This document shows, one piece after another, positions 2,941 to 61,071 of a stretch of DNA of 64,000 bases. The notes below the pieces were generated by a model. The model was not told where the DNA came from, did no database searches, and saw nothing but the letters and a program-made list of their open reading frames with translations. Position numbers and translations under genes: made by a program. Within the stretch, counting starts at the first letter, position 1. Every line of letters starts with the position of its first letter. Source of the stretch: Ruminiclostridium hungatei (lineage in GTDB: Bacteria > Bacillota > Clostridia > Acetivibrionales > DSM-1351); NCBI RefSeq assembly GCF_002051585.1, contig NZ_MZGX01000013.1, positions 70,614 through 134,613 of the forward strand, in the 5' to 3' direction.

Positions 2941-3867
2941 ATGTTAATTATGAACAGCAGCAAGGCTTTTGACGATGTAATACTTTATCTGGAAAAAATC
3001 ATATCAGACGGCAGTGAAATTGATTATGGCGAAATATCCAAAATTACCATGAGCCCGTCAGCCTTGTTTCAACGCATTTTCATTTTTGTATCGGGAATAA
3101 GCATTTACGATTATGTGAGAAAACGCAGGCTCACCTTAGCAGGACATGAGCTTAAAAACAACGGTATTTCTGTTATAGACGCAGCCGTTAAATTCGGATT
3201 CCAGTCCCATTCTGCGTTTACGCGGGCCTTTAAGGAACAGCATGGAATTACTCCGTCAGAAGCAAAACTTGAAGCTGCAAGACTAAATGACTATCTCCCT
3301 ATCAACTTCTCGGAAATGAGATTTATAGGAGGGAAACGTATAATGGCAGAAATGAAAAGGATTATTTACAAAAAAGCGGACGAACGCTTAATGGTGGGCA
3401 TGCACCGTGAGACCTCTTTTTCAGAGGCAGGCGGTGTGTGGCGGGATTTTTTTCAAAGCGGTGTAATTGAAAAACTCAACCTGCTGTCAAATGTCAAATG
3501 CTGCGGTGACATTGATGAAAATGATGGTATCGGCTTTATGCACAATTTTGTTGATAATCAGAACTTCCACATAATCATAGGCGATTTCGTACAGCCCGGC
3601 ACGGAAATACCTGAAGGGCTGTTTGCCCGGCATGTCCCCCAGGGCTTGACAGCACAGGTTCAGATTGAAGGAAATAATGTTGCGGATATACTTGCATCGG
3701 CATATTTACTGATTACCGAAGCTGTTGAAAAAACCGGAGGAGAGATTGACTATGAAAATTTCTATTGGTGCGAAGTGTATACCCATGAACGTTTTAGCGA
3801 GCCGCTAAACAGAGGCGAAAAGGTAACCATCGATTATGTAATGCCTGTTAAGGCCAGGAATGAGTGA
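2941..3867 (+). CDS. AraC-family transcriptional regulator with C-terminal GyrI-like effector domain
   Basis: N-terminal HTH_AraC: ...YDYVRKRRLTLAGHEL...[28 protein letters not shown]. The C-terminal ~150 aa is GyrI-like. Confidence 0.8.
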   Translation: MLIMNSSKAFDDVILYLEKIISDGSEIDYGEISKITMSPSALFQRIFIFVSGISIYDYVRKRRLTLAGHELKNNGISVIDAAVKFGFQSHSAFTRAFKEQHGITPSEAKLEAARLNDYLPINFSEMRFIGGKRIMAEMKRIIYKKADERLMVGMHRETSFSEAGGVWRDFFQSGVIEKLNLLSNVKCCGDIDENDGIGFMHNFVDNQNFHIIIGDFVQPGTEIPEGLFARHVPQGLTAQVQIEGNNVADILASAYLLITEAVEKTGGEIDYENFYWCEVYTHERFSEPLNRGEKVTIDYVMPVKARNE

Positions 3868-8522: not shown

Positions 8523-8744
8523 AACAGAAACAAAAATTTCAATGAAATCTTTTATGGGCTTAAATTCAATTTATCGCACGTGCCATTTATTTTTTAGTGC
8601 CTAAAAAATAGGCACTTGTGCATTAGTTTTCCAGAAACCTTCAGTTTCTTTCAAACTAATCACCCTTTCCCGCCTGCGGTTGCTGTGCCCGCCGTAATAA
8701 AAAAATATAGCCTGAAAGACTATATTTATATTTTATAACAATAT

Positions 8745-22342: not shown

Positions 22343-22427
22343 ATCTCCACTCCCTTAAAAATTTGCTCATAAATAAAGTAAATTTAAAAGGACTTTTAAC
22401 ATCCGGATTTATAATTTTATCGAAAGT

Positions 22428-44100: not shown

Positions 44101-47100
44101 ATTAATGGCAGCACGCCTTGCTACACCTTCTTCCACCTTCCAGTTTTTTTCTTCCTTCAAAATATAAAAGGGTGTCTCCGGGAATTTTATCATAGGGTTT
44201 GGAGTTGCAACATTTGGCTGAGGTGGCATCTTTTTATCTCTAAGCGCCATTACCACCTTCATAAAGCTTGCTATTCCTGCTGCGCTTAGCAGATGTCCGA
44301 TATTTGCCTTAACTGATCCGACTGCAATCATGTTTTTGCCTAAATTCCAATTTCTATAAGCATTATCAAGAGCCCTTATCTCACTTGGGTCACCAATTTT
44401 AGTTCCTGTCCCATGTGTTTCAACATATTGAATACCGGCCGGACTGAAATCGTTTTGGCAGTAGAGTGATTCTATAACGTCTCTCTGTCCGTCAGGGTTA
44501 GGGGCCATAACTCCAATTGAATGCCCGTCGTTATTCATTGAGCTCGCTTTTATTACAGCAAGAATATCATTCCTATCTTCGATAGCCTTTTTAAGAGGCT
44601 TGAGCATAATCAGACCGGCTCCCTCACCAGGAACAAAGCCATCTGCATCCGCATCAAAGATTTTTGATGAACTGCTCACCGATAGGGCACCTGCATTGCT
44701 GAAATATATGTAAGGTGTAGGTGTAAGTAAAAGATTGATTCCACCTGCTATGGCCATTTCACATTCACCTCTCTTTAGCGCCTCACACGCCAGATGAATA
44801 GTAACAAGAGAGGATGAGCAGGCTGTGTCCAGCACTAACGACGGTCCTTTAAAATTGAACTCCTGAGATGCCCTTGCAGCAATCATATTCAAGATATTAT
44901 CCACAAGGATGTTGGTGTGCGCTTCGGTCACTCCCAATCTGTTTTTCCATTCCTCCATAATTGAATCCTGCTGCTCTTTTGAAAGTAATGCAAAGCTCTC
45001 GAAATTCTGCAAATCCATTTTATTCAGTGTTCTCAAATGGTACTCATTATATAAATTTGTACCTGCGCCTATATATAACGCAACCTTTCTGCCCTCAACC
45101 TTTTGGCGGGAATAGCCTGCTCTTTCCAGCAGTTCGAAAACCAATTCAAGAATTATCCGTTGCTGAGGGTCCATTATCTCAGCCTCTTTATCTGGTATAT
45201 TAAAAAGCCCCGCATCAAAGTCATATACATCCTTTATAAACGCTCCCGAGCGGCAGTATGTTTTACCGAATTCGGGTGAGGAACTGTAATAATCATCAAT
45301 ATTCCACCGTTCTTTTGGAATGTCGCCTATACTGCATTTGCCCTTTAATATATTATTCCAGAATTCTTCGGGATTTGAAGCGTCAGGGAAACGGCAGGCC
45401 ATTGAGATGACAGCTATATCATCATTCTCATCTGAATTTCTATTACCTGCTGTCTTATCCAAAAACGAGTTTTTATCCTTTAATTCTTCATTGTTATGGA
45501 TATTCAGAATATATTGTTCCATATCATTGATGGTACTGCACTTAATTAATAAATCATGTGTAAGCTTTAAAGCAAGTTCATCTTCAATAAGGCCTAATAC
45601 CTGAATAGCTTTTACTGAGGTGCCTCCCATAGAAAGAAAAGGTTGGTCATAAGCAATGGTGCTGGCAGGTCTTTCCAAAACCCTGGACCAGATTCCGCAT
45701 ATGGTTTCAGCAAGTCCCGGCCTATTTACCACTATCTCGGACGTTTCCTCCATGGTTTCATGCTTCAGTTCGGCAGCGGTAATTACCTTTCCCGCATATT
45801 CGTTATTTCTGAAGGCTTCCACCATTGCGAAACGTTGTATTTTCCCGCTTGTGGTTTTTGGTATCAAAGGTATTGACACCACATAATCAATAGGTATTCC
45901 AAATATTTCATTGACATGCTTTAGAATTTTTGAGTAAAAGGGTTTAGCCCGCTCATCCTTAATGTGAAGAGTGGAAAACAAAGCCACTTTTTCTCTCCCT
46001 TCTGTTTCATCGTGCCATCCGCAAGCTACAACCTTTCCCGGTTCGACGCCTTCCAGCTCTTCAATTACATCCTCTATATCATGTGCATAAAAATTTTGTC
46101 CGTTAACAAATATTATGTCCTTTATGCGCCCAACCACTGTGAGGCGGCCATCCAGCATAAACCCGGTATCACCTGTTTTTAACCAACCCTCCTGAAAGGA
46201 TGCTCTGTTGGCCTCAGGATTATTTATATAGCCGGAGGTAACGTTATCTCCTCTGATCTGTATTTCACCCACTGTACCCTCAGGTACTACAGAACCCTTT
46301 TGATCCACTATTCGGACCTCGGTGCCATTTACAGGATAACCCTCGTCAGCTAAAAGCAATGCATTTTTGAGTTTTCTATCTACATATTTCACTTTTGCCT
46401 TCGACACAAGTACCTGTCTGTCTACGCTGTGCACCAGAGGCTCTTCAAATGGTATGGGAAAGCTCACAGCCAGGCAGGCCTCAGCCATCCCGTAAACTGT
46501 ATACATGGCACTTTTCTTCAGTCGGCAAACTGATAACTTTTCCATAAACTCTTCCGCCAAAGATACAGATATTGGTTCAGCACCATTACATATATATTTC
46601 AAGCATGACAAATCCAATTTTTCAAGCAGTTCGGGCTTAATTCTGCTCAATACCAGCTTGCACCCAAAATTCGGTGTACCTGTGATTGTAATACGATATT
46701 TGGAAATAAGCTCCAACCATTGATTAGGCCGCTTTATGAATTTATACGGTGTCATATTGAATTGAGCCATTCCAAGAGCTGTAATGCTAAGGTGGAAACC
46801 TATCAGCCCCATATCATGATGGTACGGCATCCACCCAAGACACCTGTCCTCACTGGTAAAATTGGCACTTGCTATAATTGCCTCTACATTTGTTAATAGG
46901 TTGCCATGAGTTAAGATAACACCTTTAGGAGTATTGGTGCTTCCCGAACTAAACTGAATGTATGCTGTTGAACCTTTTTCCGCAAGGTCAGCTTCTCCAC
47001 CTTCACTGCTTATATCGAAAGTTAAAACATCTTCAAATTCCATTCCGCTGATTCCTATAATTCTATTGAGCTCATCGCTGCTTTCCTTCAGATAACTATC

Positions 47101-47526
47101 AGACAAAATCAGCGGTTTTTCCAGTACATTCCATACTGCCTCCAGCTTCTTCAAGGATGCATTTAATGCTCTGGTAGAGGTAGGATAAATAAGAGGAGCC
47201 GGGATAATCCCCCCCAATATGCATGCCCAGAAGGTAATGATAAAATCTAAATTATTGTTTAGTACCAATAAAACATACTGCCCTTTTTTTATTCCTGCCT
47301 TTTGCATTCCTCCTAAACGCAGCAGAGCTTTTTGAAGTATTTCTTCGTACAGAAGGAATTGCTCCGAATCATCATTTTGTATGAAAGTTATTCCTTTATC
47401 TTTTTGATTTTGTGCAGAATCAATCAGCAAATATGCAAGATTTGCCTTGCTACTGTATATTCCCGTCACATCGGCTCCTTTTGCCTGTGACAACCTTATT
47501 CCCTTATTTGTTTTTATATTTTTCAT
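38200..47526 (-). CDS. type I polyketide synthase with N-terminal fatty-acyl-AMP ligase loading domain: FAAL-ACP-KS-AT-KR-ACP-KS-(degenerate AT-like C-terminus)
   Basis: FAAL/AMP-binding motifs (FSSGSTNTPKGV, GYPVNGTEV, YRTGD-like WLKTGD). ACP FLSMGGTSVKAI. KS1 DTACSSSLVTIHLA. AT GHSVGEWAAAC. KR Rossmann GGTGLIGGSIA. ACP2 LEMGLSSLDVTK. KS2 NSACSSSLVALHMA. The last ~450 aa lack a GHSxG. Confidence 0.95.
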   Translation of the reverse strand: MKNIKTNKGIRLSQAKGADVTGIYSSKANLAYLLIDSAQNQKDKGITFIQNDDSEQFLLYEEILQKALLRLGGMQKAGIKKGQYVLLVLNNNLDFIITFWACILGGIIPAPLIYPTSTRALNASLKKLEAVWNVLEKPLILSDSYLKESSDELNRIIGISGMEFEDVLTFDISSEGGEADLAEKGSTAYIQFSSGSTNTPKGVILTHGNLLTNVEAIIASANFTSEDRCLGWMPYHHDMGLIGFHLSITALGMAQFNMTPYKFIKRPNQWLELISKYRITITGTPNFGCKLVLSRIKPELLEKLDLSCLKYICNGAEPISVSLAEEFMEKLSVCRLKKSAMYTVYGMAEACLAVSFPIPFEEPLVHSVDRQVLVSKAKVKYVDRKLKNALLLADEGYPVNGTEVRIVDQKGSVVPEGTVGEIQIRGDNVTSGYINNPEANRASFQEGWLKTGDTGFMLDGRLTVVGRIKDIIFVNGQNFYAHDIEDVIEELEGVEPGKVVACGWHDETEGREKVALFSTLHIKDERAKPFYSKILKHVNEIFGIPIDYVVSIPLIPKTTSGKIQRFAMVEAFRNNEYAGKVITAAELKHETMEETSEIVVNRPGLAETICGIWSRVLERPASTIAYDQPFLSMGGTSVKAIQVLGLIEDELALKLTHDLLIKCSTINDMEQYILNIHNNEELKDKNSFLDKTAGNRNSDENDDIAVISMACRFPDASNPEEFWNNILKGKCSIGDIPKERWNIDDYYSSSPEFGKTYCRSGAFIKDVYDFDAGLFNIPDKEAEIMDPQQRIILELVFELLERAGYSRQKVEGRKVALYIGAGTNLYNEYHLRTLNKMDLQNFESFALLSKEQQDSIMEEWKNRLGVTEAHTNILVDNILNMIAARASQEFNFKGPSLVLDTACSSSLVTIHLACEALKRGECEMAIAGGINLLLTPTPYIYFSNAGALSVSSSSKIFDADADGFVPGEGAGLIMLKPLKKAIEDRNDILAVIKASSMNNDGHSIGVMAPNPDGQRDVIESLYCQNDFSPAGIQYVETHGTGTKIGDPSEIRALDNAYRNWNLGKNMIAVGSVKANIGHLLSAAGIASFMKVVMALRDKKMPPQPNVATPNPMIKFPETPFYILKEEKNWKVEEGVARRAAINSFGFGGTNCHIVLEENPVEADLLSEVCDEKPRHILCLSANTEAALEQKINNLSNFLEERKDYSIADVCFTENVLRTTFKNRYCAIADSTADLVEKLKKASLDINKSIALPKVALMFTGQGSQYVGMGRALYEKLPAFRKYVDMCSDAFYPYLDVKITDLLYGGNADEKFLAQTNITQPVVFTMDYSIGSLLLELGVKPLYVLGHSVGEWAAACIAGAVNLEDAARLVAARGRLMSQLKVEGAMAAVFTSASGIEALLKPYEGSLWAAGYNVTHQVVSGKADTMDEFLKELQKKGVGSKRLNVSQAFHTPLMKPMLEAFKKELEVTTFNTPKIPIVSNITAEIYTKLYTPQYWLDHILGAVRFEQSVKYMFDKGINILVEAGPDKILTGMASSLASESNQILASMDRKKDNWDILLNTLGKLFTLGVKIHWEDFEKDFSHKKVLLPSYPFERKTYMPDFGSGASGNLSRRFDNWFHEWSWKSEKLVQISKLNDGAVILFAEDENTIKDFELSLESDKNKLYHVTYGKSFSYDGKQSFLINPLRQEDYFSLLDSIQGEISSIIHMWNYFEKSLEASRLVEQEEVLYKSAYSILLLAKALSNRKLENLRLLLVTNKAFCISGEYEIQNPHQSIAIVLGQALDTEVKGLFTSVLDIDNEDYISGTEAAATIVDELGKKPNAEAIVAVRKKERFVRELEKAPISKLIEDKIYLNDNETYLITGGTGLIGGSIAEAFAKRAQVNLVLTGRGELPPGEEWNENSAEAAAAKISLIRSLESKGAKVAYFAVDVSDSTQMSEMVKQVNEEFGPIHGVVHAAGIMDSSAYKLLDKDLETFKNVLAAKVNGTIVTDCVTNKEPLKFFVLMSSVSASKKKWSAGITDYAAANYFLDCYSSYRSKSNSPGKSLAINYSLWEAKGKGIISGEASELAVKAQGLRPLPAEGAVEAFMQALNYKNQNVIHIMDLMEAKEEIKPLRKETKAAYEESRMKVSGKTANEIRSIVYGTIAEELNADADNIDEGMNFLEMGLSSLDVTKIVARISKALGAELYPTLIFEYQTPEAFTNYIEKTYAVSEGEIAAVAEENLLYAADKNKEDIQDIAIIGIGLRIPGADTLEEYWDILKNGKCIIKEVPKDRWSAEENYSDDKKLLHTTYTNKGGFIDKPYDFDPLLFGMSPNEAEATDPQQRIFLQIAWEALQQAGYGGKYKSNKIGVFVGCEQNSYMEHFTGYRTYMLLKNKLEQSEAYKGMKPKERRELMTNILQVLNPGQLVADAVAGSGLNEIAARVSHCLNLSGPSLIVNSACSSSLVALHMACESLRTGQAEMALAGGVNLNMSATPFVSLSRVTALSPSGNCYPFDKRADGMVLSEGASAVLLKPLKYALEDNDNIFAVIKGSAINNDGHSQGITAPRPQGQAEAIRNAYITSGINPETVSYIETHGTGTPLGDPIEIEGMTQAMRSFTSKKNFCGVGSVKSSLGHMLSAAGLISLIKVVLALNNKTIPHTINFEEPNTNIDFSNSPFYVVGKEPREWKAEGSPLRAGVNAFGFGGTNAHVILEEAPLITNTGTESEEERQHNVIFLTGRNEKIVQAIAGNLIAHMKKKPELDLSSICFTMNNSQKELTFKTAIVTDSKEHLLDMLLKLEKGEESSELIKGRSNPNRVTPVSLVMDCSFELDKKDCDKIAKRFSGFAEAYNKCMQIFEKEGSGGPDSQLAKTVESFALQYAFGALLCDFGIKLKSIICEDNAILAGGALAGIITIKQAARFLINKAGYKNNELDESTGYELNCPVVTPLGIADKTNIFDLVSSIRGEARGKLSLDSCKEIINKDEAIVYLGSSKTKGNEFEKMKFNNLQWIEMSMSQNCAAAILAVMAKLYTTGVSYNPSKLSWHKARRVPLPTYPFENSEYKVSFKDESLEADNNEYSEEKTNNFASTNELVDFKEASARLALKKLNTQEAISGEAKACSIEGLRRDLSKI

Positions 47527-47573
47527 TTAAATCCCTCCAAATAATAAGCTAAAACACTTCCATCAATATCACT

Positions 47574-48740
47574 TTAAGCGTCTCTTTTAAAAAGGTTGCT
47601 CTTGGAATACTTACTAGTAATGGCTATGTATAGTATTAAAATCATAAAAATTATAAAGCTTATGCTGAATATATAATTATTTCCTAGATATCGCATTGCT
47701 CCAGATGATAAAAACGGACCGGCTGCTGAACCGATTCCGTAAGCAAAAGTAAATAAAGCTACCCCCGGCATTAATTCTTCCTGTATGAGATCCTGTACAG
47801 ACAGAGATAGAGATAGTGGATATATGGGCCCGATTGTAAAACCAGCAATAAATGAGAAGATTAATTTGCTGCCGAAGCTGTTAAAATACATGACACCTAT
47901 AATAGCAAACAATGAAAAGAATATAGTTAACCCAAGACATTTTTTACGTCCAAATTTATCTGCCAAATAAGTTACAGGTATGGTTCCAATTATGCTCCCG
48001 ATTACAAATATCCCTAATGCGTATCCTACCTGTGAGAGCCCGAAATTAAGCCGGAGCATAAAGAGAGGATAGAGAGCTACCAGAGTTGTCTCTGAAAAAC
48101 CATATGCAAAGGCTCCAAATAAAGCCAGAGTAATTTTAGAAAAGATCTTTCCCTCACTATAGGTTGGTATTGTCAGCAAATTTTTTAATTTGAAATTAAT
48201 AAAAACAGCAGCACTGCAAAGACTGACGGAGCCCATTAAAAAAGCTATCCAGGCAGCGCATTCATAGAGCATTGGGCCAACTAAAGAACTAATAACAAAC
48301 CCTACAGCAAAACAAAATGAATATATGCCGCTTACCAACGCTTTGTTGCCGCTGTCAGTGGCGTTTTGCATGGCTGTTTGAATACCCACCAAATTAAGGC
48401 TGACACCTGCCCCCATAAGACCCATAAGTAAAAACCATAAGGCCCTGTTCTCTGATAAGGGAAAGCCTATTGAACAAATAGCTGCTAAAATGAGCCCTAA
48501 TATTAGTATTTTTCTAATATCTTTTCCTCTTTGCTTTTTATAAATAAATATTGAACCAAGCGCCATAAAGAGAAAATATGAGGAAGAAATTGCACCAACC
48601 CATACCTCTGAAACATTATTTCTTGTCATATGCGTAGTTGCAAGAGGGTTTATCACCCCCATTGCAAGTCCTACCATTAATGCTATACAATACATAGCCC
48701 ATTTATTGTTTCCAATCAGTTTATCAAATTGTTCTCTCAA
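47574..48740 (-). CDS. MFS transporter (likely product exporter)
   Basis: 12 TM helices. MFS motif A-like GRKKCLG. Confidence 0.85.
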   Translation of the reverse strand: MREQFDKLIGNNKWAMYCIALMVGLAMGVINPLATTHMTRNNVSEVWVGAISSSYFLFMALGSIFIYKKQRGKDIRKILILGLILAAICSIGFPLSENRALWFLLMGLMGAGVSLNLVGIQTAMQNATDSGNKALVSGIYSFCFAVGFVISSLVGPMLYECAAWIAFLMGSVSLCSAAVFINFKLKNLLTIPTYSEGKIFSKITLALFGAFAYGFSETTLVALYPLFMLRLNFGLSQVGYALGIFVIGSIIGTIPVTYLADKFGRKKCLGLTIFFSLFAIIGVMYFNSFGSKLIFSFIAGFTIGPIYPLSLSLSVQDLIQEELMPGVALFTFAYGIGSAAGPFLSSGAMRYLGNNYIFSISFIIFMILILYIAITSKYSKSNLFKRDA

Positions 48741-48795
48741 GCTGCTACCCTTTCATAAATCAAGTTATCAAAGACAATTACGGTTCATGTGGCCT

Positions 48796-51700
48796 TTAAC
48801 CGGTGGTAATTGAACTTTTCTTACTTTGTAATAAAGTTTTAAACATTGCTGTCTGTTGAGATCCGAACCAATACATATCTTGTTTGCCATAGACCTTTAT
48901 GGCTTCACCGGTAATATAATCTGACATAGCTGATGCAAGGAATACAGCAGTATCTGAGATTTTTTCAGGAGGAATAGCCCTGTTTTTTAACGCTTTGGGC
49001 GCCATATCAGTGTCTACCAGTGCAGGACATATGGCGTTTACCTGAATGTTGTGGGGCTTTAGCTCCTCAGCTAACGATTTGGTCAGACCGAGCACTGCAT
49101 GTTTTGATGCGGCATATGCACTCATAAGCGGATAACCGATAAAGGAGGAATCTGACCCCATATTAATAATCTTTCCTTGATTGTTCTTTATGAAATGTGG
49201 TATTACAGCTCTGCAGAAATTATATGTCCCAAAGAGATTTACATCTATTATTTTTTTCCACTCCTCCGGTTCAATATCATTTATAGCTGAAAACTTTGTA
49301 ATGCCTGCGTTGTTTACCAACACATCAATTTTTCCATACTCTCTCAAAACCAGGTCCATAGCCTTATCTACATCTGCCTGCCTGCTTATATCCGCAGGAA
49401 TAATCATTGATCTCACACCAAGCTGCTGCATTTCCTGCGCCGTTTGTTCCAATTGCTCCCTGGTCCTTGAAACAATTACAATCTCGGCCCCCTCTTTCGC
49501 CATTGTAAGAGCAATACTTCTGCCGATGCCTCTTCCCCCGCCAGTTATAATTACTACTTTGTCCGAAAGCAAGCCCTCCCCGTTTTTCCTGTTCTGGAAT
49601 GGTTTGTTCCTGTAAGTTTGTGAGGTCTCTTCCTCTACAAAGCTGATAAGTTTTGTAATACTCTCTATGTACTTTTCACCCAACTGCTTAATTGTTTCAA
49701 TCTTAAATAAATTTTTTGAGTACTCAATTTCAAGATTTAACTTTCCATCCACCACTGAGAAGAAAAACTCAATAACGGATATCCTTTTTTGTTCAGGAAC
49801 AGAATATCTTCTATCCATTCCGGCTTTGGAGAACTCGAAATTATCAAATTTCGGAACGTCCCTGTTGCCGAGGTAATTTGCTCTAACAGGAGTCATTTTG
49901 GTATCAGGATACATATACACCGGTAAATAATCCGAAACCATGTCATAGCTTATTCCATTCATAGGAATAGTTTCTAATGTATTCTTTACTTTCTCAACCA
50001 AGCTTCCCCAGGCCTCATCCTGTATAAAATCAATACCCATTGGAAAATTAACTGCGAAATTTCCTGCAGTCTGAAAGAAAGTATTATTAGCATCAATCTC
50101 CCTGCCATGGACCCTGTGGCTTATTATAACTTTTGATTGCTTGTATCGCTCTCCCAGCAGCTTATAAAGAGGAGCAAGCAAAATAGGATAAACATTACTT
50201 CCAAAGAACCTCTTTGCTTTACTTAAGATTATCGAAGTCTTATGGCTGTCCAGCACAAATTCAACTGTGGCTGCAGACCCTTCGTCATTAGCTCCCAGAT
50301 TGAAATCTGCTGGAATTCTGAATACATCTTCTTTAAGTGGGAACATTTCCTTCCAATATGCTACATAATCTTGTAATTTCTTATCCTTCTCATGCTCTAC
50401 ATGTTCTACAAATTCTCTGTAAGACCTTGAAGCCTGAAGTTTTATATCTTGCTCAGATAAAATATTATAGTAAATCTGCCATATCTCTTTAAACAACAAA
50501 TTATTTGTTACTACATCTGAAATAAGATGATGACCCACAAAAGCCATATCGTACATACTGTTTGAGATCTTAACCGCTATAACCTTCCATAGAGGCCATT
50601 TATCGACATCAAAACTTCGTATGGCATCATTTATCAGTTCATCCACAGCCTGATCTATTTGCTCTTTATCCATGTGAGCGGCATCAAAATACTCCACGTT
50701 TAAATAGTTGCCCTGTGGTAATATTTTTTGCACCCATTGGGAATCCTTCTGACACAATATACTTCTTAGGGCATCATGTCTGTTTGCAAGCATATTTACC
50801 GCTTTGTTAAAAGTAAGGTAATCCAGAGGCTGCTTAAATAAAAATCTCGTAAACCCGGTCCAATTGTATGGGAAATCAAAGAAATTCATTAACCAGCGCT
50901 GTGCCGGTGCCAGTGGAATAATTGCTTCCTGCTCTTGATTATAAACGTCTTGAAGCTTCTCTTCCTTGACCTGATTGATTACAGCCATCTCATTTGTTTT
51001 TACTGCTCCATATTTGTTTCTATATACCTCCTGCATTGCCCGCCTGTCAAGCTTTCCGTTTGGATTCTTCGGAAGGCTTTGCAGCCATTCTATTCTGTGT
51101 GGAATCATGTAATGGGGCAGCTTATTACCAATATGGTCCTTTATTTCAGAATCCGAAGTATTTCTGCCTGACAAATAAGCCACAAGCTGACTTTGTCCCT
51201 CATTGCCGTCAACTACAATGACTGCCGCCTCATTTATATTACTATGGCTGTTGAGTACCGTCTCTATTTCACCCAGTTCAATCCTGAAGCCTCGTATTTT
51301 CACTTGATTGTCAATGCGACCATGATACTCAAAGCTTCCATCTTCTCTTTTTCTTGTCAAATCCCCAGTGCGATACAAGAAGTCTCCCGGTATTTCACTG
51401 AAAGGATTGGGTCTGAAGGACTCGGCAGACTTTTCAGGATTTTTCAGATAACCCTTTGCAAGCTGTATGCCGCCTATCCATAGTTCACCGATTTCTCCTA
51501 CTTCCTTGATTCTCATATTTTCATCAAGATTTAAGATGTAAACATTGTCTACAGGCTTTCCGATTGGAATTTGATTTTCTCCCTCAGCACCCGGTCTCTT
51601 TTCAATGATATGGTATGTAACATCGATAGAAGCTTCTGTGGGACCGTACAAGTTTGCCAGCTGAGTGGCCATTCCGTGCTTGTCTATCCATTCCTGGACA

Positions 51701-54700
51701 TAGTACATAGGCAGAGCCTCTCCGCTAAAAATCAGCCAGCGCAAATCCTTAAAGCTGAAAGCCTCCTGTTCCAAAGCATGCACGAATTCACCAAAAAGTG
51801 AAGGTACAAAATGCATTATATTTATTTTTGTATCAACAAGCCACTGAGCAAGAGCCCAGGGGTTTTTGACTATCTCCTTACGAACAGGGCATACCGTACC
51901 ACCGTACATTAATGGCCAGAAGAGTTCCCATACAGATATATCAAAGCAGCAGGAAGTTTTTTGTGCTACCCTTTCTCCCAGCTTTAAATTGAATATCTTT
52001 TGATGCCATACTAAGCGGTTCATATAACCAAGATGATTGAGCATTACTCCTTTTGGATTTCCGGTAGAGCCTGAAGTATACAGTACTACCATTAAATCCT
52101 CCGGTCTGCTTTTGTATTCCGGCTCAACTGCCGGATACTCCATCCAGGCGACTGTGTCAATCAACGTTGAGGCTTTGAATTCTTTGCTGTTAGTTACATT
52201 GTCAAGGGAAATAACCTTTTCGATACCGTTGCAGGCTTCTATCAAAGCGTTTAACTGCCCCAGCAAGGAATCTTCTGTAATTAGTATTTTAATCTCAGAA
52301 TGGTTAATAATATATTGAATCCTTCCGGCTGGATATGATGGATCTACAGGTACGTAAGCAGCCCCTGCTTTGAGAATTCCAAGCATACCTAAAAGCATCG
52401 ATGAACCCGGCAAAGTCATAATACCAACCAGCGACCCACTTCCAAGCCCCTGACTGTTCAGGTAATTTGCAAGCCTGTTGGTAATGCGTTCCAGTTCTGA
52501 ATAAGTTATGCTCTGATTCTCAAAAAGTATCGCTTGTGCATTTGGAGTTAATTTACATTGTTGAACAATTTTCAAGTAAGGAATTTGTATATCCGGGATT
52601 TCTCTATTTTCATTAATAGCAATACTGCTATCATCCAGCAGGTATGACATCTCTCTTAGCGTCCCGCAGGTAAACATACTGTTTCTGTCCAGCTCTTTAT
52701 TTGTTTTACTTAGCCTTGTAACCAGTCGGATGCGTTCAAGAGAATCTATGCCAAGCTCTGAATCAATATCCTTGTCCAAATCCCGGGCTGTAAACTCTCT
52801 TTGGCATATCTCCCCGGCTATCCGGCAGAGCTCTGCTTCAACCGCTTTGCTGAAAATTGCTGACGTTCTCGGAACTTGCTTACTCTGCTCAACTGCTGCA
52901 CTAATCTTTGCAAGCTCATAAATGTTAGATATAAATCTATTCATGTGTATATCAATATAAGCTTCATCAAAAAAAGAACTGTCGTAGTTTGAAGTGAGCA
53001 ATATTCTGCCCTGAAACAATTCCACAAGGATATCAATAGTTCCGGGATTTGTGCAGGTATATGCCTCATAATCCTCTACTTCCAAATTACTGCCATACCC
53101 GGCTTTTATATTTGTATTTCCAATAAAAGAAAGATAAAGGTTGGATTTTACAGAAGAACGGATGATATCAGCAACAGTTTCAGGCATTTTGCCATCTATT
53201 AACATCTCATTCTCTTTTGTTGCAAAGGCAGCTTGAAAGGTTTGTGCCCTGTCAAGCCCTGACGATAATTTACTCTTTATCTCTGCTTTGACTTTTTTTA
53301 TCAAGTCTTCCCAGCTTTCATCAGTATTTTTCATATCAAAGCTTAAAGCCATGTTCTGAGCAAATGAACTTAAAACCCCTGTGGCATCTGCATTGGGATA
53401 TACCTTTCCGCCTGTGGGCAGGTTAATAATTATTTTGTTTTCACTTTCTTTTAACTGTTTGATGGTTTTTAAATATGCGCTGACAAAAAGTACAAATAAT
53501 GAAACCTTCCATATCTTCGTATTTGAGAAAAGCTTTTCTGTATTGTTTTCATCAATCCAAAATTTCTTGATTTTTGTTTTTATAGGCTTAAATGGCTCCG
53601 GCAATTCAAGCTTTTTATCTTTTCCATATGGATTAAAAAAATATTTTTCCTTACCCTGCTGTACTAAATAGCTCTTTAGTGCAGCATCCTCTTGTGTACT
53701 TTTCCAAGAATTCAACTCATTAACTAAATTGTTATACTCATATACCGAAATCTCAGGAGGCAAGCTAGCCTTTGTACCATTAAGCTTTGCAGAATAAATT
53801 TCCAAAAGCTCTCTTAATAACTGTTGATTGCCAAGCCCATCTGTAATAAGATGAATAATTGACAAGACTATATAAAAGCTTCTGTCACCTGTTTGTAGTA
53901 CAGAAATGTTATGTAAAGGCCAATTGAAAATATCAAATTTACTATTTAGATGTTCCTCATAACTCTCTTTTAAATACTTATCCTGCATACTACTATTTAA
54001 ATAACGTATATCTTCCACTTTTATATCAGGTAAAGTGATATGGTTCAATACCTTTTGCATGTAGCCCTTAAAGCTCTTTGCCTTTGGTGCCACCTCAAAT
54101 ACTATCCGCAATGCCGGATGGCGGTAAATCAGTTCTTTCCATGCAGCCTGAAGACATAATATATTTAATTCACCCTTTACCATTACTCCTGAGCAAATTG
54201 TAAGTGTAGATATTGCCTGGTAGCATGTCAGAAAGGCATATTGTGAATTCAGAACTTCCAGATATTCTTGCTGTCCTTCTATGTCATATTCGGGTTGCTC
54301 CATTGAAGCTTTTTCACCTGTCTGATCTTGTGAGTTTGTTTCCTGCCAGTTTTCAAATATTTCAGCAATCTCTCCTACCGTTTGCAGTGTCATCATTGAA
54401 GCTACGGAATTTTCAGCTGTAAATTTCTCCATTTGTCCGGCCGGAATTAAATTTATCATCTCATTCATCACTGTTATCATCTTGATTGAATCAAGCCCCA
54501 GATCTGCCTCGAGATACATGTCATTGTCTATCGAATCAAGTGAATGCCCTGTAACCTTGGATATGAGTTCATAAATCGTTTGTCTGATATTTGCTTCAGC
54601 CGTAACTTCTTTGTTACTGTCTGCTCTTGCCGTAACTTCTTCGTTCCTGCTGCTCTGAAACTTGTCGGAATTATTTTCGTTTTGATTCATTTGTTCATCA

Positions 54701-54978
54701 ATTTTATGTAGATACCAATTTTCAAATACTTCTACAATATCTCCCACCGCTTGCATTGCCATCATTGATGCTACAGGATTTTCAGCTGTAAATTCTTCCA
54801 TCTGGTCAGCCGGAACCAGCCCCATCATCTCATTCATCACTGTTATCATTTTAATTGAATCAAGCCCCAAATCTGCCTCAAGATACATATCATTATCTAT
54901 ATCCTCAGGCGCATGTCCAGTGACCTTTGATATGATCTCGTACACAGATTTTTTGATATTATCCCTGTATAATTCCAA
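48796..54978 (-). CDS. non-ribosomal peptide synthetase with atypical domain order: ACP-ACP-C-(carrier)-A-C-SDR
   Basis: Two near-identical N-terminal carrier domains (YLEADLGLDSIKMITVMNEM x2). C1 with variant IHLITDG. Carrier-like ELGIDSLERIRL before the A domain. A-domain core LYTSGSTGNPKGV / YRTGDL / NGKLDRR. C2 with HHLISD. C-terminal classical SDR (TGGGRGIGRS...YAASK). Confidence 0.95.
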   Translation of the reverse strand: MELYRDNIKKSVYEIISKVTGHAPEDIDNDMYLEADLGLDSIKMITVMNEMMGLVPADQMEEFTAENPVASMMAMQAVGDIVEVFENWYLHKIDEQMNQNENNSDKFQSSRNEEVTARADSNKEVTAEANIRQTIYELISKVTGHSLDSIDNDMYLEADLGLDSIKMITVMNEMINLIPAGQMEKFTAENSVASMMTLQTVGEIAEIFENWQETNSQDQTGEKASMEQPEYDIEGQQEYLEVLNSQYAFLTCYQAISTLTICSGVMVKGELNILCLQAAWKELIYRHPALRIVFEVAPKAKSFKGYMQKVLNHITLPDIKVEDIRYLNSSMQDKYLKESYEEHLNSKFDIFNWPLHNISVLQTGDRSFYIVLSIIHLITDGLGNQQLLRELLEIYSAKLNGTKASLPPEISVYEYNNLVNELNSWKSTQEDAALKSYLVQQGKEKYFFNPYGKDKKLELPEPFKPIKTKIKKFWIDENNTEKLFSNTKIWKVSLFVLFVSAYLKTIKQLKESENKIIINLPTGGKVYPNADATGVLSSFAQNMALSFDMKNTDESWEDLIKKVKAEIKSKLSSGLDRAQTFQAAFATKENEMLIDGKMPETVADIIRSSVKSNLYLSFIGNTNIKAGYGSNLEVEDYEAYTCTNPGTIDILVELFQGRILLTSNYDSSFFDEAYIDIHMNRFISNIYELAKISAAVEQSKQVPRTSAIFSKAVEAELCRIAGEICQREFTARDLDKDIDSELGIDSLERIRLVTRLSKTNKELDRNSMFTCGTLREMSYLLDDSSIAINENREIPDIQIPYLKIVQQCKLTPNAQAILFENQSITYSELERITNRLANYLNSQGLGSGSLVGIMTLPGSSMLLGMLGILKAGAAYVPVDPSYPAGRIQYIINHSEIKILITEDSLLGQLNALIEACNGIEKVISLDNVTNSKEFKASTLIDTVAWMEYPAVEPEYKSRPEDLMVVLYTSGSTGNPKGVMLNHLGYMNRLVWHQKIFNLKLGERVAQKTSCCFDISVWELFWPLMYGGTVCPVRKEIVKNPWALAQWLVDTKINIMHFVPSLFGEFVHALEQEAFSFKDLRWLIFSGEALPMYYVQEWIDKHGMATQLANLYGPTEASIDVTYHIIEKRPGAEGENQIPIGKPVDNVYILNLDENMRIKEVGEIGELWIGGIQLAKGYLKNPEKSAESFRPNPFSEIPGDFLYRTGDLTRKREDGSFEYHGRIDNQVKIRGFRIELGEIETVLNSHSNINEAAVIVVDGNEGQSQLVAYLSGRNTSDSEIKDHIGNKLPHYMIPHRIEWLQSLPKNPNGKLDRRAMQEVYRNKYGAVKTNEMAVINQVKEEKLQDVYNQEQEAIIPLAPAQRWLMNFFDFPYNWTGFTRFLFKQPLDYLTFNKAVNMLANRHDALRSILCQKDSQWVQKILPQGNYLNVEYFDAAHMDKEQIDQAVDELINDAIRSFDVDKWPLWKVIAVKISNSMYDMAFVGHHLISDVVTNNLLFKEIWQIYYNILSEQDIKLQASRSYREFVEHVEHEKDKKLQDYVAYWKEMFPLKEDVFRIPADFNLGANDEGSAATVEFVLDSHKTSIILSKAKRFFGSNVYPILLAPLYKLLGERYKQSKVIISHRVHGREIDANNTFFQTAGNFAVNFPMGIDFIQDEAWGSLVEKVKNTLETIPMNGISYDMVSDYLPVYMYPDTKMTPVRANYLGNRDVPKFDNFEFSKAGMDRRYSVPEQKRISVIEFFFSVVDGKLNLEIEYSKNLFKIETIKQLGEKYIESITKLISFVEEETSQTYRNKPFQNRKNGEGLLSDKVVIITGGGRGIGRSIALTMAKEGAEIVIVSRTREQLEQTAQEMQQLGVRSMIIPADISRQADVDKAMDLVLREYGKIDVLVNNAGITKFSAINDIEPEEWKKIIDVNLFGTYNFCRAVIPHFIKNNQGKIINMGSDSSFIGYPLMSAYAASKHAVLGLTKSLAEELKPHNIQVNAICPALVDTDMAPKALKNRAIPPEKISDTAVFLASAMSDYITGEAIKVYGKQDMYWFGSQQTAMFKTLLQSKKSSITTG

Positions 54979-55623: not shown

Positions 55624-56808
55624 TTAATCCTCTGAAGCCTTGAAGTTATATATCGGTTTGATAATTCGGTTGATTTCAACAGTATCCTGAATGTTGTCAA
55701 TTATCTCTTCGATGGGCTTGTATGCTGACGGAGCTTCATCCAGTGTAACCGCCGACACTGAGGTTGTATATATCCCATCCATAGATTTTTTAAACTCTTC
55801 CAGGGACAATTTAAGTCTTGCCTGTTTTCGGCTCATTAACCGGCCTGCGCCATGAGGGGCTGATTGGTTCCAATCAGCATTTCCCTTGCCAGTAGCGATA
55901 ATACTTCCATCCCTCATATTCACAGGGATTATTACCCTTTCGCCTTCCTTGGCAGATATGGCGCCTTTTCTCAAAATCATTTCATCCATATCTATATAAT
56001 TATGAATTGTAGTAAAGCTATCTATAACATTGAAATTCATCTTGCGAATAATAACCTCCGCAATAGCCTTCCTGTTGAATTCTGCAAATACCTGAGCAAT
56101 GCGCATATCATGAATATAGTCTTCAAAAGCCTGACCCTGGACATAGGCTAAAGAGCTGTTGATTTTAACCCTTTCTTTTTCTATTTCAGACTGAATACAC
56201 TGCTCTCTTCCTTGAGATTTTAATACTGCAATAATCTCATCATTGCTCTTTTTGACTATTTCTTTGGTTGCTCTGCTTTGATAGTACTCAGCTATTTGCT
56301 TTCCCAAGTGACGACTGCCGGAATGTACAACCAAGTATACATTTCCACCATCATCAACATTCATTTCTATGAAGTGATTTCCGCCTCCAAGTGTGCCAAT
56401 ACTCAGTGATGCCCTTTTTAAATCAACCTGCTCTTTACACCTTAAGGCATGGATATCCACAAATGCATTATATTCATGAGGATTAACACGTACGTCAAAC
56501 CCACTTGGAACGCAGCTTCGTATTACTTCATCAAGCCTCTTAAAATTCATCGCTGTTTTTCCCAATATGCTGACAAACATTCCACAGCCGATGTCAACTC
56601 CCACCAGGTTCGGAACTATTTTATCCCTTATGGTCATTGTCGTTCCAATAGTACAGCCTGCTCCCGCATGAGTATCAGGCATTATTCTGATTATGCTTTG
56701 TTTAACAAACTCCTGATTACAAAGCTCCAGTATTTGCCCTGCTGCCTTATCTTCCAAATTATCTGTAAATACTTTAGCTATATTGTATTTCCCTTTGATT
56801 TTAATCAT
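55624..56808 (-). CDS. rtcB: RtcB-family RNA 3'-phosphate/2',3'-cyclic phosphate ligase
   Basis: RtcB metal/GTP site motifs IRIMPDTHAGAGCTIG, DIGCGM, GGNHF, HSGSRHLG, and C-terminal NQSAPHGAGR. Confidence 0.85.
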   Translation of the reverse strand: MIKIKGKYNIAKVFTDNLEDKAAGQILELCNQEFVKQSIIRIMPDTHAGAGCTIGTTMTIRDKIVPNLVGVDIGCGMFVSILGKTAMNFKRLDEVIRSCVPSGFDVRVNPHEYNAFVDIHALRCKEQVDLKRASLSIGTLGGGNHFIEMNVDDGGNVYLVVHSGSRHLGKQIAEYYQSRATKEIVKKSNDEIIAVLKSQGREQCIQSEIEKERVKINSSLAYVQGQAFEDYIHDMRIAQVFAEFNRKAIAEVIIRKMNFNVIDSFTTIHNYIDMDEMILRKGAISAKEGERVIIPVNMRDGSIIATGKGNADWNQSAPHGAGRLMSRKQARLKLSLEEFKKSMDGIYTTSVSAVTLDEAPSAYKPIEEIIDNIQDTVEINRIIKPIYNFKASED

Positions 56809-56893: not shown

Positions 56894-58015
56894 TTATACC
56901 TTACACTGCTTATCTACAGCTTTGTTTGAAAGTAAGGTATTCAATTGTTCCAGTAAACTACCGCCGCCTGTCAGTGAGACATTTCCTATCTTCTCACAGA
57001 TTTTCTCCAGGAATTCAAGCTCCTTTAATCTGTATAGAGTTTGATTTTCCTCCATAAGCTTAGCGGTATTTAAAAGGCTTCTGGTTGAGGCAACTTCTTC
57101 TCTTCTTGTTATAACATTGGCCTGCGCCTTTTTCTCAGCAATCAGCACAGTGTTTAGTATGTCTTTTATTTCGCCAGGTAAAACAACATCCTTTACACCG
57201 GCAAACAGGAACTCAACACCATAGCTGTTGCTTTTCTCTTTAAGTTTCTCAAGAACATAGTTTCCAATCTCCTGTTTCTTCGCAAGCAGATCGTCAAGTT
57301 TCATTCCGCCAACATACTCTCTCAATATCAATTGCAAGACTATGTATAGCTGCTCCTCGAAGGATTTTATTTCAATAACCTTTAATGGCTCCGTAATTTT
57401 GTAATGACACACAAAGTTTAACCTTAAGGTTATTTTATCCTCAGTCATGATTTCCTGACCGGTCATATCCAACTGTTGTTGTCTAAGGTCGATTTTCTTA
57501 ACAGCCGTATGTACAGGACTTTTCCAGAAGAAGTATCTGCCCGGTTCCAGTGTTTTCTGTACTGTATTATCATAGTATAGAATCCCCTTTTCATGACTCT
57601 CAACTTCAAAGTAGCCAACAACCCCTGAAAGTTTTGGGCTTTTGTATATTGAAGCATCAATATCCCTGACTTCAGGATTTCTGGTATCAATTGTCGAGAA
57701 CTCATGCTTTTTAAGTACCTTCCAGAAAGCATATTTACCGGATTTCAGAACCTCTGAAAGCTTACCATCTTCAAAGTGTATGGCAAGCTCATAATCCTGA
57801 ACATCTACAATTGAAAGCTCCTTTAAAAGCTCCTGATCCTCCAAATAAATATTCAGGTTCTTACCTGCCGTTTCAAATACCTTATTTACATCTGCTATGG
57901 CAACTGTATACTTAACAAATGGATTAAGGCTGTATTTCCCAGGCTTTAAGCATTTAACGTAGTTTCCGTCCTTAAATAACAAGCCTCTTTCATCATTTTT
58001 AATTGTTACTTTCAT
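56894..58015 (-). CDS. SPFH/band-7 (slipin-like) domain protein, first gene of an operon with rtcB
   Basis: SPFH core DKITLRLNFVCHYKITEP, then coiled-coil VLPGEIKDILNTVLIAEKKAQANVITRREEVAST. No TM anchor visible. Confidence 0.7.
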   Translation of the reverse strand: MKVTIKNDERGLLFKDGNYVKCLKPGKYSLNPFVKYTVAIADVNKVFETAGKNLNIYLEDQELLKELSIVDVQDYELAIHFEDGKLSEVLKSGKYAFWKVLKKHEFSTIDTRNPEVRDIDASIYKSPKLSGVVGYFEVESHEKGILYYDNTVQKTLEPGRYFFWKSPVHTAVKKIDLRQQQLDMTGQEIMTEDKITLRLNFVCHYKITEPLKVIEIKSFEEQLYIVLQLILREYVGGMKLDDLLAKKQEIGNYVLEKLKEKSNSYGVEFLFAGVKDVVLPGEIKDILNTVLIAEKKAQANVITRREEVASTRSLLNTAKLMEENQTLYRLKELEFLEKICEKIGNVSLTGGGSLLEQLNTLLSNKAVDKQCKV

Positions 58016-58344
58016 GATTGTTCATCCTTTCTTTAATACATTTTTTAAATCTCTTTCAAGAATCCTCCCGGAATATGGGCGGAGTGCTGCTTAAGGATAT
58101 TGCAACTGAATCACTTCCCATTGGAAGCAATTAATTACCGATGTTAAAACACTTCATATCTGATACTTCAGGCGGACCTGAATTATTCTCATATATCCAT
58201 GTATAAGTTTCGGCTTGCCACATCCGGTATCCACACACTTCAAGGCTTAATTCCGGTCTTAAGGTAAACAAGCTGCCAAAAGCTGAGGATTCTTTCAAAA
58301 GATCCTGGTGATTTTTCGAGTGACAGTCGAGTGCAACCTGCGTC

Positions 58345-58465
58345 AGATCCAAAGTCTGATGGGGAATCGAACCCCGTTTCCATAGCCTTATGCTCTGCCT
58401 CTGAGCTAATTACTTAATAGTAATAGAGGAATCGAACCTCCGACACTAAGGTAAATTGAGTTCTT
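58345..58465 (-). ncRNA. tRNA-like element(s) lacking an anticodon arm; candidate Y-RNA-like (YrlA-type) tRNA mimic or tRNA gene remnants, in the leader of the slipin-rtcB operon
   Basis: Minus strand reads ...GTCGGAGGTTCGATTCCTC TATTACT ATTA AGTAATT A GCTCAGAGGCAGAGC ATAAGGCTATGGAAAC GGGGTTCGATTCCCC ATCAGAC... That is two canonical T-arms (GGTTCGATTCC) and a D-arm (TAGCTCAGAGGCAGAGCA) but no anticodon stem. Not a foldable standard tRNA. Confidence 0.4.
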
Positions 58466-58581
58466 GCTTCCCGGTATACCTCAAACGATATAAAGTATGA
58501 AGCACCGCCAGACCATTCAGAAATCTTTGCCTTGGGAATTAAGAACAATTTTAGTATACAAGGATAATTTTCTATTTAACA

Positions 58582-58615
58582 GACAAAAAGTTTGCAACAT
58601 TAAGCTTGCAAACTT
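58582..58615. promoter_or_regulatory. operator-like inverted repeat AAGTTTGCAA-n8-TTGCAAACTT, with a 17-nt motif GACAAAAAGTTTGCAAC shared with 61013..61029
   Basis: Perfect 10-bp inverted repeat at 58588..58597 / 58606..58615. An identical 17-mer at 61013..61029 lies upstream of the WYL gene pair. No U-run, so it is not a terminator. Confidence 0.4.
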
Positions 58616-58658
58616 CGTCTACTGACAAAATATAAATTCATAACAGACAATTCCCAGG

Positions 58659-61071
<2,413 letters not shown>

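Follow-up and report, generated by a model that had tools for sequence, protein, structure and literature searches.

What is a cluster of tRNA-like arms doing in front of an RNA-repair operon? The question is raised by a 64,000-nt stretch of the Ruminiclostridium hungatei genome (contig NZ_MZGX01000013.1, positions 70,614 to 134,613; hereafter the window, in which coordinates are counted from the first nucleotide and all features described below lie on the minus strand). Here, T-arm and D-arm sequences are found between two tandem WYL regulator genes and a slipin-rtcB operon. An original prediction, made from the letters of the window, read the arms at 58345-58465 as a tRNA mimic of the YrlA-type Y RNAs, and named a decayed tRNA gene pair or a cis-acting leader, serving RtcB as substrate or decoy, as alternatives. 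On the pattern of conservation among related loci, we identify the element as a functional tRNA mimic, not a tRNA gene, that sits in the leader of the slipin-rtcB operon. It consists of two tRNA-like modules, both circularly permuted, within a structured RNA of far greater length, and its partner gene is slipin. With high confidence, we regard it as a member of the "b7a-tRNA" class of noncoding RNAs (ncRNAs) predicted by Burroughs and Aravind (2016), as that class is described in a 2018 source.

Two modules in tandem make up the tRNA-like array (58451-58315). They share the order variable loop, T-arm, loop-closed acceptor stem, U8-A9, D-arm and anticodon-stem equivalent. The two T-arms of the original prediction hold: the minus strand has two copies of the T-loop block GGTTCGATTCC, at 58438-58428 and at 58373-58363, where dinucleotide shuffles of the window give an expectation of 0.03. 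So does its D-arm, with the block TAGCTCAGAGGCAGAGC present once (58408-58392) and 0 expected by chance. Module 1 (58386-58451) is of an open, YrlA-like type. Its closing stem pairs CCUUA (58451-58447) with UAAGG (58390-58386) and encloses a variable-loop-like GUGUC (58446-58442), the T-arm GGAGG-UUCGAUU-CCUCU (58441-58425), a closed acceptor hairpin AUUACU-AUUA-AGUAAU (58424-58409), U8A9 (58408-58407) and the D-arm GCUC-AGAGGCA-GAGC (58406-58392), which is followed by a single A. Read in this way, module 1 is a tRNA with a loop-closed acceptor stem whose chain enters and exits via the anticodon stem, and this is the YrlA topology. The two modules are separated by 9 nt. Module 2 (58315-58381) is of a closed type, made of a T-arm (58376-58360), a closed acceptor hairpin UCAGA-CUUUGGA-UCUGA (58359-58343), a degenerate 3-bp D-arm GCA-GGU-UGC (58341-58333), a single A and an anticodon-like arm CUCGA-CUGUCAC-UCGAA (58331-58315). 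The latter has a stem of 4-5 bp and a 7-nt loop and aligns with the conserved anticodon-like arm of the family. The loops that close the acceptor hairpins measure 4 nt in module 1 and 7 nt in module 2.

This anatomy departs from the original prediction on several points. No anticodon stem-loop had been thought possible, whereas module 2 has one just outside the flagged span and the equivalent stem of module 1, CCUUA/UAAGG, covaries. The acceptor halves had been proposed to pair across the two units; each T-arm has a covarying hairpin of its own (58424-58409 and 58359-58343), and there is no complementarity between AGTAAT and ATCAGA, the halves that would have to pair across the units. The flagged extent is real but too small, given an array of 58451-58315 within a conserved RNA of approximately 58530-58059. 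No ordinary, intact tRNA was called here: ARAGORN made zero tRNA calls in the whole window. The linker before module 1 holds a block, GGAAC(U/C)C (58463-58458), that is kept in the two-module RNAs of relatives (L003-L011, L049 and L067). It is complementary to the T-arm sequence GGGUUC, a pairing that no covariation backs. Minimum free energy (MFE) folding suggests a Y-RNA-like long stem of GGGAA..GAACUC with T-arm 2. We rejected this stem because L007 is without the GAAC segment, L010 has uncompensated changes and the T-arm hairpin itself covaries.

The weight of the argument is carried by comparison with relatives. We gathered 79 genome and 80 metagenome loci (approximately 160, labelled with L-numbers and set with the slipin gene on the plus strand) and aligned them with E-INS-i and RNAalifold. 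A covariance model, R1, was built from 32 closed-type modules of relatives, with the window absent from the seed. Searched against both strands of the window, R1 recovers module 2 with 49.1 bits (E 2e-11 over the whole window) and module 1 with 33 bits (E 4e-7); the next match scores 12 bits. Across the loci it gives 102 + 72 matches (E <=0.01), every one on the slipin strand and 250-600 nt 5' of the slipin start codon, save those at the tRNA-gene junctions of L074. Such junctions are a known class of false positives for models of this kind. A simple T-arm pattern is likewise found 300-500 nt 5' of slipin in most loci and almost never on the opposite strand. The adjacency of RNA and slipin on the same strand holds in approximately 150 of the 160 related loci, at a distance of 300-440 nt in the window. 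The conservation upstream of the operon that had been suggested as a check is present, and it follows slipin, not RtcB.

Approximately 150 distinct modules could be parsed and the order of their arms is identical throughout. The T-stem and the acceptor hairpin carry compensatory substitutions (AUUACU/AGUAAU, AUCGC/GCGAU, AUCACC/GGUGAU, CCGUAC/GUACGG, CUUGC/GCAAG). In the R1 alignment, 94.6% of the cells form standard pairs, compared with 74.9% in column shuffles and 35-53% when the partners are slid. Double-sided changes number 283 against 58 in the shuffles and 18 of the 19 pairs covary, figures of a sort that relatedness inflates. The closing stem of the open modules covaries as well, in 11 combinations (CCUUA/UAAGG, CCGGA/UUCGG, CCGUG/CACGG, CCAAA/UUUGG and others). 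In the 7-nt loop of the closed modules C32, U33 and A37 are each kept in 84% and A38 in 88%, and positions 34-36 hold 19 different triplets, among them GUC in the window, GUU in L001 and UUU in L083. The number of modules is one in most Paenibacillus, two in the window, its Clostridial relatives and Thermoactinomycetaceae, and four in L130, where four consecutive T-arm modules follow each other at ~2387-2700. ARAGORN, run on 41 loci, found no tRNA immediately 5' of slipin and called only the tRNA genes of L074 and one tRNA inside the slipin open reading frame (ORF) of L027. An Rfam scan of 16 related loci returned marginal tRNA matches at module junctions and no YrlA at the gathering threshold.

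Some loci elaborate on this plan. The acceptor-hairpin loop has acquired an insertion of approximately 100 nt in L134 (~244-494) and of 21 nt in L083 (2563-2639). In L145 (2634-2772) both acceptor hairpins are near-identical (ACUUC/GAAGU) and the Rfam tRNA model scores 40 bits across the junction. This near-identity would allow the two modules of L145 to pair with each other in imitation of a linear tRNA; the window is without such a pairing. In L074 (2477-4098) 17 true tRNA genes lie directly 5' of the RNA-slipin unit.

How far does the conserved RNA extend beyond the modules? In an alignment of the whole spacer, conserved blocks flank the array on both sides and give an RNA of approximately 470 nt (~58530-58059). 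The 5' domain holds two hairpins. P1 (GC-AGAU...GUCU-GC; 58507-58530) is 93% paired over 76 cells against 81% in shuffles, with 70 double-sided changes against 18 and slid controls at 27-46%. P2 (GGUGC...GGUA-[UA bulge]-CC; 58473-58506) has an invariant 2-nt bulge motif, an A-U/G-C switch at its closing pair (60 to 17) and 138 double-sided changes against 43 in shuffles. The 3' domain (58059-58293) is an irregular stem enclosed by P_L, a 9-bp long-range helix between AGAAUCCUC (58293-58285) and GAGGAUUCU (58067-58059) that is 91% paired, with 149 double-sided changes against 48. The other two helices of this domain, P_mid and P_dist, are 93% and 84% paired, with 202 against 62 and 163 against 54 double-sided changes, respectively; the slid controls in the 3' domain reach 27-59%. 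All five helices of the flanking domains exceed 500 shuffles in both percentage paired and double-sided changes, and collapse when slid. The irregular stem of the 3' domain carries the conserved motifs GGAUACCGG (58232-58224) and CUUAAGC..CUCCGCC (58095-58078). A T-arm is present in 133 loci; the 5' motif precedes it in 117 of them and a GGAUACCG-like motif follows it in 119, where by our estimate chance would give ~0.02-0.03 per locus. All four leader motifs appear in order in 82. Neither flanking domain matches any Rfam family. The internal loop GGAUACC/CUUAAG, compared by eye with the 11-nt tetraloop receptor, did not match it. A small ORF that overlaps the 3' domain (58131-58352, 73 aa, TTG start) was taken as non-coding, because it has no Pfam match and the domain shows covariation of the RNA type.

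The position of this RNA suggests that it is transcribed together with its neighbour. A -10-like hexamer, TATACT (58558-58553), lies approximately 23 nt 5' of the first conserved helix and is the probable start region of the RNA-slipin transcript; a strict sigma-70 scan of the window did not call it. As a -10-like block precedes P1 throughout the family alignment, the RNA is best read as the 5' leader of slipin. Given that no terminator intervenes, we consider it likely that the leader is co-transcribed with slipin, and with rtcB where that gene follows. Indeed, the segment from the RNA to the slipin start holds a terminator-like hairpin in only two of the 133 loci. The conserved structure ends 40-70 nt 5' of the start codon, and in the window the slipin ribosome binding site (RBS), AAAGGATG (58030-58023), lies outside the conserved helices, P_L included. 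Where the genes are ordered rtcB-RNA-slipin, the RNA is intercistronic and has its own promoter-like element.

Another question regards the gene with which this RNA is associated. Judged by the content of the loci, the constant pairing is that of RNA and slipin, beside interchangeable tRNA-repair enzymes, and not that of the RNA with RtcB or Ro60, because RtcB and the WYL regulators are patchy and other loci have Hen1/Pnkp, RlaP or no repair gene in their place. Slipin is highly conserved; by tblastn, RtcB is detectable in 23 and the WYL pair in 26 of the 79 genome loci. In Shimazuella the RNA-slipin pair stands alone with no repair gene nearby, and in Paenibacillus ehimensis it adjoins Hen1 and Pnkp. 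In another Paenibacillus locus, L032, the RNA occurs three times (RNA-related coordinates 879-946, 1123-1380, 3064-3131 and 8605-8672). A slipin gene follows two of the copies, and the third is followed by a pseudogene with a truncated slipin reading frame (MFKKITIQADERGLLF...). Full-length slipin homologues with 35-38% identity are present in Proteobacteria. The yjbD-lysC island of E. coli combines a sigma-54-like promoter (TGGCACGCTTCTCGCA), an R1 match (24 bits), slipin and the nucleotidyltransferase RlaP. This leader is present in 1,632 of 5,426 complete E. coli genomes (30%), and RefSeq annotates no feature there. The E. coli leader has no Rfam match and its 3' region could not be aligned by eye to the Firmicute 3' domain. 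The RNA keeps the same place and strand with respect to slipin in Clostridia, Bacilli, Negativicutes and E. coli alike. According to a recent preprint, RlaP acts on damaged tRNAs; the preprint is silent on the slipin-leader RNA. The E. coli island (L163 3678-3696; L164 5001-5321) also has a divergent gene of the zeta-toxin family.

The slipin itself gives a hint of what the RNA might be paired with. Inspected by eye, its sequence is without an N-terminal hydrophobic segment. An AlphaFold2 model (mean pLDDT 77, pTM 0.55) has three N-terminal beta-strand repeats, an SPFH domain and a long helix; its C-terminal helices are of low confidence. The beta repeats make up the N-terminal third (residues 1-176), and the first of them opens with an SPFH-like ERGLLFKDG motif. 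Foldseek against the PDB finds assemblies of stomatin, HflK/C, prohibitin, erlin and flotillin, and the longest alignments, of 427-477 columns, are to the major vault protein. The model points to a soluble SPFH protein with an architecture like that of the major vault protein and, from this predicted fold, we infer that slipin may form a ring or a cage.

How could such an RNA and such a protein work together? On balance, we lean towards an RNA that is transcribed together with slipin, acts as the partner of the protein and offers tRNA mimics to the enzymes of tRNA repair. The leader RNA would fold into L-shaped tRNA mimics, in which the T-loop, the GG of the D-loop and the U33/A37 signature of the anticodon loop are retained, and would assemble with a ring- or cage-forming slipin into a ribonucleoprotein (RNP). 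Like Ro60-YrlA, this RNP could expose a surface shaped like a tRNA and with it tether, gate or compete for repair enzymes that act on tRNA; these would be RtcB in the window and Pnkp/Hen1 or RlaP in other genomes. The RNA might act as part of the mRNA or once it has been processed from it. The RNP with its tethering role is drawn by analogy, and we put it forward tentatively.

Several points weigh against our interpretation. Folding, which had been suggested as a check on the element, yields unremarkable MFE z-scores (-0.75 for 58480-58320 and -0.07 for 58451-58315). Moreover, the comparative structure lies approximately 6 kcal/mol above the MFE (-29.0 vs -35.4 kcal/mol) and the MFE fold differs from it; thermodynamic folding is uninformative for this element. 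The alignment used for covariation, A4, is model-fitted and takes 14 rows from a real tRNA array. The 2018 source calls the b7a-tRNA class unvalidated, and identity with that class rests on this secondary description, not on published sequences. Finally, a strict cis linkage without a terminator fits cis-regulation at least as well as a trans-acting RNP.

Cis-regulation is accordingly the best of the rival explanations, and an unlikely one in our judgement. The pattern would be that of the E. coli thrS operator: a protein of the system that binds tRNA, be it slipin, RtcB or a WYL regulator, would bind the tRNA-shaped leader and repress its own mRNA, and damaged or excess tRNA would draw it off and relieve the repression. 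The RNA always lies immediately 5' of slipin on the same strand, with a terminator almost never between them. It has a -10-like element of its own (sigma-54-like in E. coli) and is therefore a 5' untranslated region, and its conserved structure stops merely a few tens of nucleotides short of the start codon. Nonetheless, no conserved helix sequesters the slipin RBS and there is no terminator/antiterminator pair. A multi-domain RNA of approximately 470 nt with one to four modules also far exceeds the needs of an operator mimic, and the swapping of protein partners between YrlA and b7a-tRNA, as reported in the 2018 source, suggests a role as RNP cofactor.

In a bolder version of the RNP, which we find rather improbable, the RNA would be no small tRNA-like sRNA but a large and "ornate" molecule of a kind new to the literature. 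It would measure approximately 470-530 nt (two 5' hairpins, one to four permuted mimics and a long-range 3' domain), lead the mRNA of a vault-like SPFH cage and be packaged by or assembled with that cage. Its anticodon-loop module would be cut by ribotoxins and resealed by RtcB, which would set the level of the repair response. If true, this would be a bacterial counterpart of both the vault with its vault RNA and the RtcB-dependent splicing of mRNA.

Cleavage of the closed-module loop is also at the centre of an explanation in which the RNA is a bait or sensor for anticodon nucleases, and we give it little credence. Ribotoxins would cut the loop, and the cut would alter the fate of the mRNA or release a fragment with a 2',3'-cyclic phosphate that activates the WYL regulators. 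RtcB would reseal the break and close a feedback, comparable to the activation of RtcR by tRNA halves and to the splicing of XBP1 mRNA by RtcB. The neighbouring genes encode enzymes that repair tRNA breaks, tRNA fragments are known from the literature to activate RtcR, and the geometry of the loop (C32, U33, A37, A38) is kept while the triplet varies even among close relatives. However, such variability is equally expected if positions 34-36 are unconstrained. Open modules, including module 1 of the window, have no anticodon loop, some RNA-slipin units have no ligase nearby and, according to the literature, Salmonella YrlA is not cut by the relevant nuclease.

Could the element be a genuine Y RNA of the YrlA type, working with a Ro60 protein whose gene lies in another part of the genome? 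We consider this very improbable, even though the original prediction was right that the element is a tRNA mimic with the arm order of YrlA in the slipin-rtcB leader. At gathering thresholds Rfam finds nothing in the window. In a permissive scan (E <=10) of the 1 kb at 57900-58900 the only matches are YrlA, tRNA and noise, and the class is absent from Rfam 15. YrlA (RF02553) is the best of these, with 37.3 bits (E 2e-6; 58464-58365) against a gathering score of 69; the tRNA model reaches 18.9 bits against 29. The YrlA alignment covers the T, AS (acceptor stem) and D elements in full length, in keeping with the topology of module 1, which is exactly that of YrlA, but the columns of the Ro-binding stem are mostly deleted. 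Three features have been used to define YrlA, a tRNA mimic bound by Ro60: arms in the order T/AS/D, a GNCGAA(N)G motif for the binding of Rsr, and a same-strand location at most 4 kb from rsr (Chen et al., 2014; PMC4201824). Our element has the T/AS/D order. Its sole GNCGAA(N)G match, GACGAAG (58619-58613), lies in an inverted repeat 5' of the -10-like element and is absent from L005 and L008; we estimate the chance expectation in the 640-nt spacer at approximately 0.3. As noted originally, there is no Ro60 gene in the window: no TROVE domain was found among its ORFs of at least 320 aa or among the ORFs at most 4 kb from the RNA. Since the score is below gathering, the Ro-stem columns are deleted, a Ro60 gene is missing from the window and the partner in the 160 related loci is slipin and never rsr or rtcB, the element is, by these features, not a member of the YrlA family. 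Lastly, a functionless pair of decayed tandem tRNA genes or an old integration scar, for which speak the tRNA-derived sequence blocks and a T-arm-then-D-arm order that looks like a tRNA-tRNA junction (as R1 matches the real junctions of L074), can practically be dismissed, given the compensatory changes in every helix, an acceptor segment that is a covarying hairpin closed by 3-8 nt where a junction would give two unrelated strands, and the fixed position and strand relative to slipin from Clostridia, Bacilli and Negativicutes to E. coli.

The genes around the RNA are as originally described, with Pfam matches for those on either side. Slipin (56894-58015; Band_7, E 7e-31) is followed by the RtcB RNA ligase gene (55624-56808; RtcB, E 3e-63), and on the other side of the RNA lie the tandem WYL/WCX regulator genes (59647-61017 and 58659-59687; WYL and WCX in Pfam, WYL in PADLOC). 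Besides two small ORFs, the ORFs at most 4 kb from the RNA are the two WYL genes, slipin, RtcB and a nonribosomal peptide synthetase (NRPS). Between the WYL genes and the RNA, a terminator-like site is formed by a perfect 9-bp inverted repeat, AGTTTGCAA-N8-TTGCAAACT, followed by TTTTT (58589-58614). The sequence of the arms, and not their pairing alone, is kept in L005 and L008; in a filtered view of the alignment, L001 keeps the 3' arm alone, with one substitution. The repeat may terminate the WYL genes, may serve as a WYL operator, or may do both; the operator is suggested by the conservation of the arm sequences in L005 and L008. Directly 3' of rtcB lies a hybrid polyketide synthase (PKS)/NRPS pair (3108 aa and 2060 aa) with a gene for a major facilitator superfamily transporter in between (38200-54978). 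As this secondary-metabolite cluster adjoins rtcB, we take the locus to be chromosomal. Megablast of the locus against plasmids and a protein search of slipin against phages gave no match, and PADLOC has no defence-system model that covers slipin or RtcB. Farther away (20303-24548), an ORF combines a core domain of extracellular contractile injection systems (eCIS) with a nuclease domain like that of the contact-dependent inhibition (CDI) toxin EC869. Its neighbours are a weak CHAT-domain ORF and a 1241-aa subtilase, and together they resemble a polymorphic-toxin or conflict gene set.

What the class gains from this analysis is an architecture supported by covariation, made of permuted open and closed modules, their arrays and a multi-domain leader. 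Slipin, rather than RtcB or Ro60, emerges as its obligate partner, tied in structure to cage-forming SPFH proteins and to the major vault protein. The class was predicted ten years ago, is outside Rfam 15 and remains unannotated in 1,632 complete E. coli genomes; a family covariance model would close this blind spot in genome annotation. In the tractable E. coli, the role of tRNA-mimicking Y-like RNAs in RNA repair and that of soluble bacterial SPFH assemblies are open to experiment.

Finally, the element can be placed among known systems. Permuted tRNA arms occur in genes of Cyanidioschyzon merolae, and transfer-messenger RNA (tmRNA), viral tRNA-like structures and mascRNA are further tRNA mimics. 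The permuted algal genes give, via a circular intermediate, ordinary tRNAs with free acceptor ends. In contrast, the acceptor stem is here closed by a loop of 3-8 nt and the break lies at the variable loop or anticodon stem. In a canonical tRNA gene the 5' and 3' strands would pair as the acceptor stem and leave the 3' end free, whereas the acceptor stems of the modules are closed hairpins. Aminoacylation would be impossible, because the acceptor end is closed and there is no CCA end. T-box leaders and the thrS operator share with our RNA the location in a 5' leader and a tRNA-related structural logic; unlike in T-box and other riboswitch leaders, there is no Rfam T-box match, no terminator/antiterminator and no RBS sequestration by conserved helices. 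Vault RNAs are encoded by separate genes and are not tRNA mimics of the kind seen in the window modules. The likeness to the vault particle is that of a slipin with N-terminal beta repeats, an SPFH "shoulder" domain and a long helix, paired with a structured ncRNA. It stops at the cage, which is here a prediction from the fold, and we claim no homology of the RNAs.

YrlA comes closer. Module 1 has its permuted domain, with T-arm, loop-closed acceptor-like stem and D-arm and with a closing stem in the place of the anticodon stem, and the rtcB neighbourhood of RNA repair is shared as well. Besides the low score (37 vs 69 bits), the window without a Ro60 gene and the different partner, the element differs from YrlA in the closed anticodon arm of module 2 and in being embedded in a far larger leader, YrlA being a small RNA of approximately 110 nt. 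The closest counterpart is the b7a-tRNA, or Band-7-associated tRNA. Among the papers searched, no further one mentions this RNA. According to the 2018 source, it is an ncRNA predicted in 2016 by Burroughs and Aravind beside a Band-7/SPFH gene and RtcB in RNA-repair operons. The same source holds that it was proposed to be functionally equivalent to YrlA, with which it occasionally swaps protein partners. Our RNA likewise adjoins a Band-7/SPFH gene on the same strand, in the window and in approximately 150 of 160 loci. It likewise has an RNA-repair gene nearby, with RtcB directly 3' of slipin in the window and RtcB, Hen1/Pnkp or RlaP in relatives. The class as such was thus already predicted in the literature; as far as the 2018 source conveys the 2016 description, the architecture, the flanking domains, the slipin linkage, the vault-like fold and the spread in E. 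coli may go beyond it. That source also says that the b7a-tRNA "strongly resembles an authentic tRNA", whereas in the RNA described here all four arms and the signatures of the T-, D- and anticodon loops are present but in permuted order, ARAGORN makes no call and the Rfam tRNA model matches marginally.

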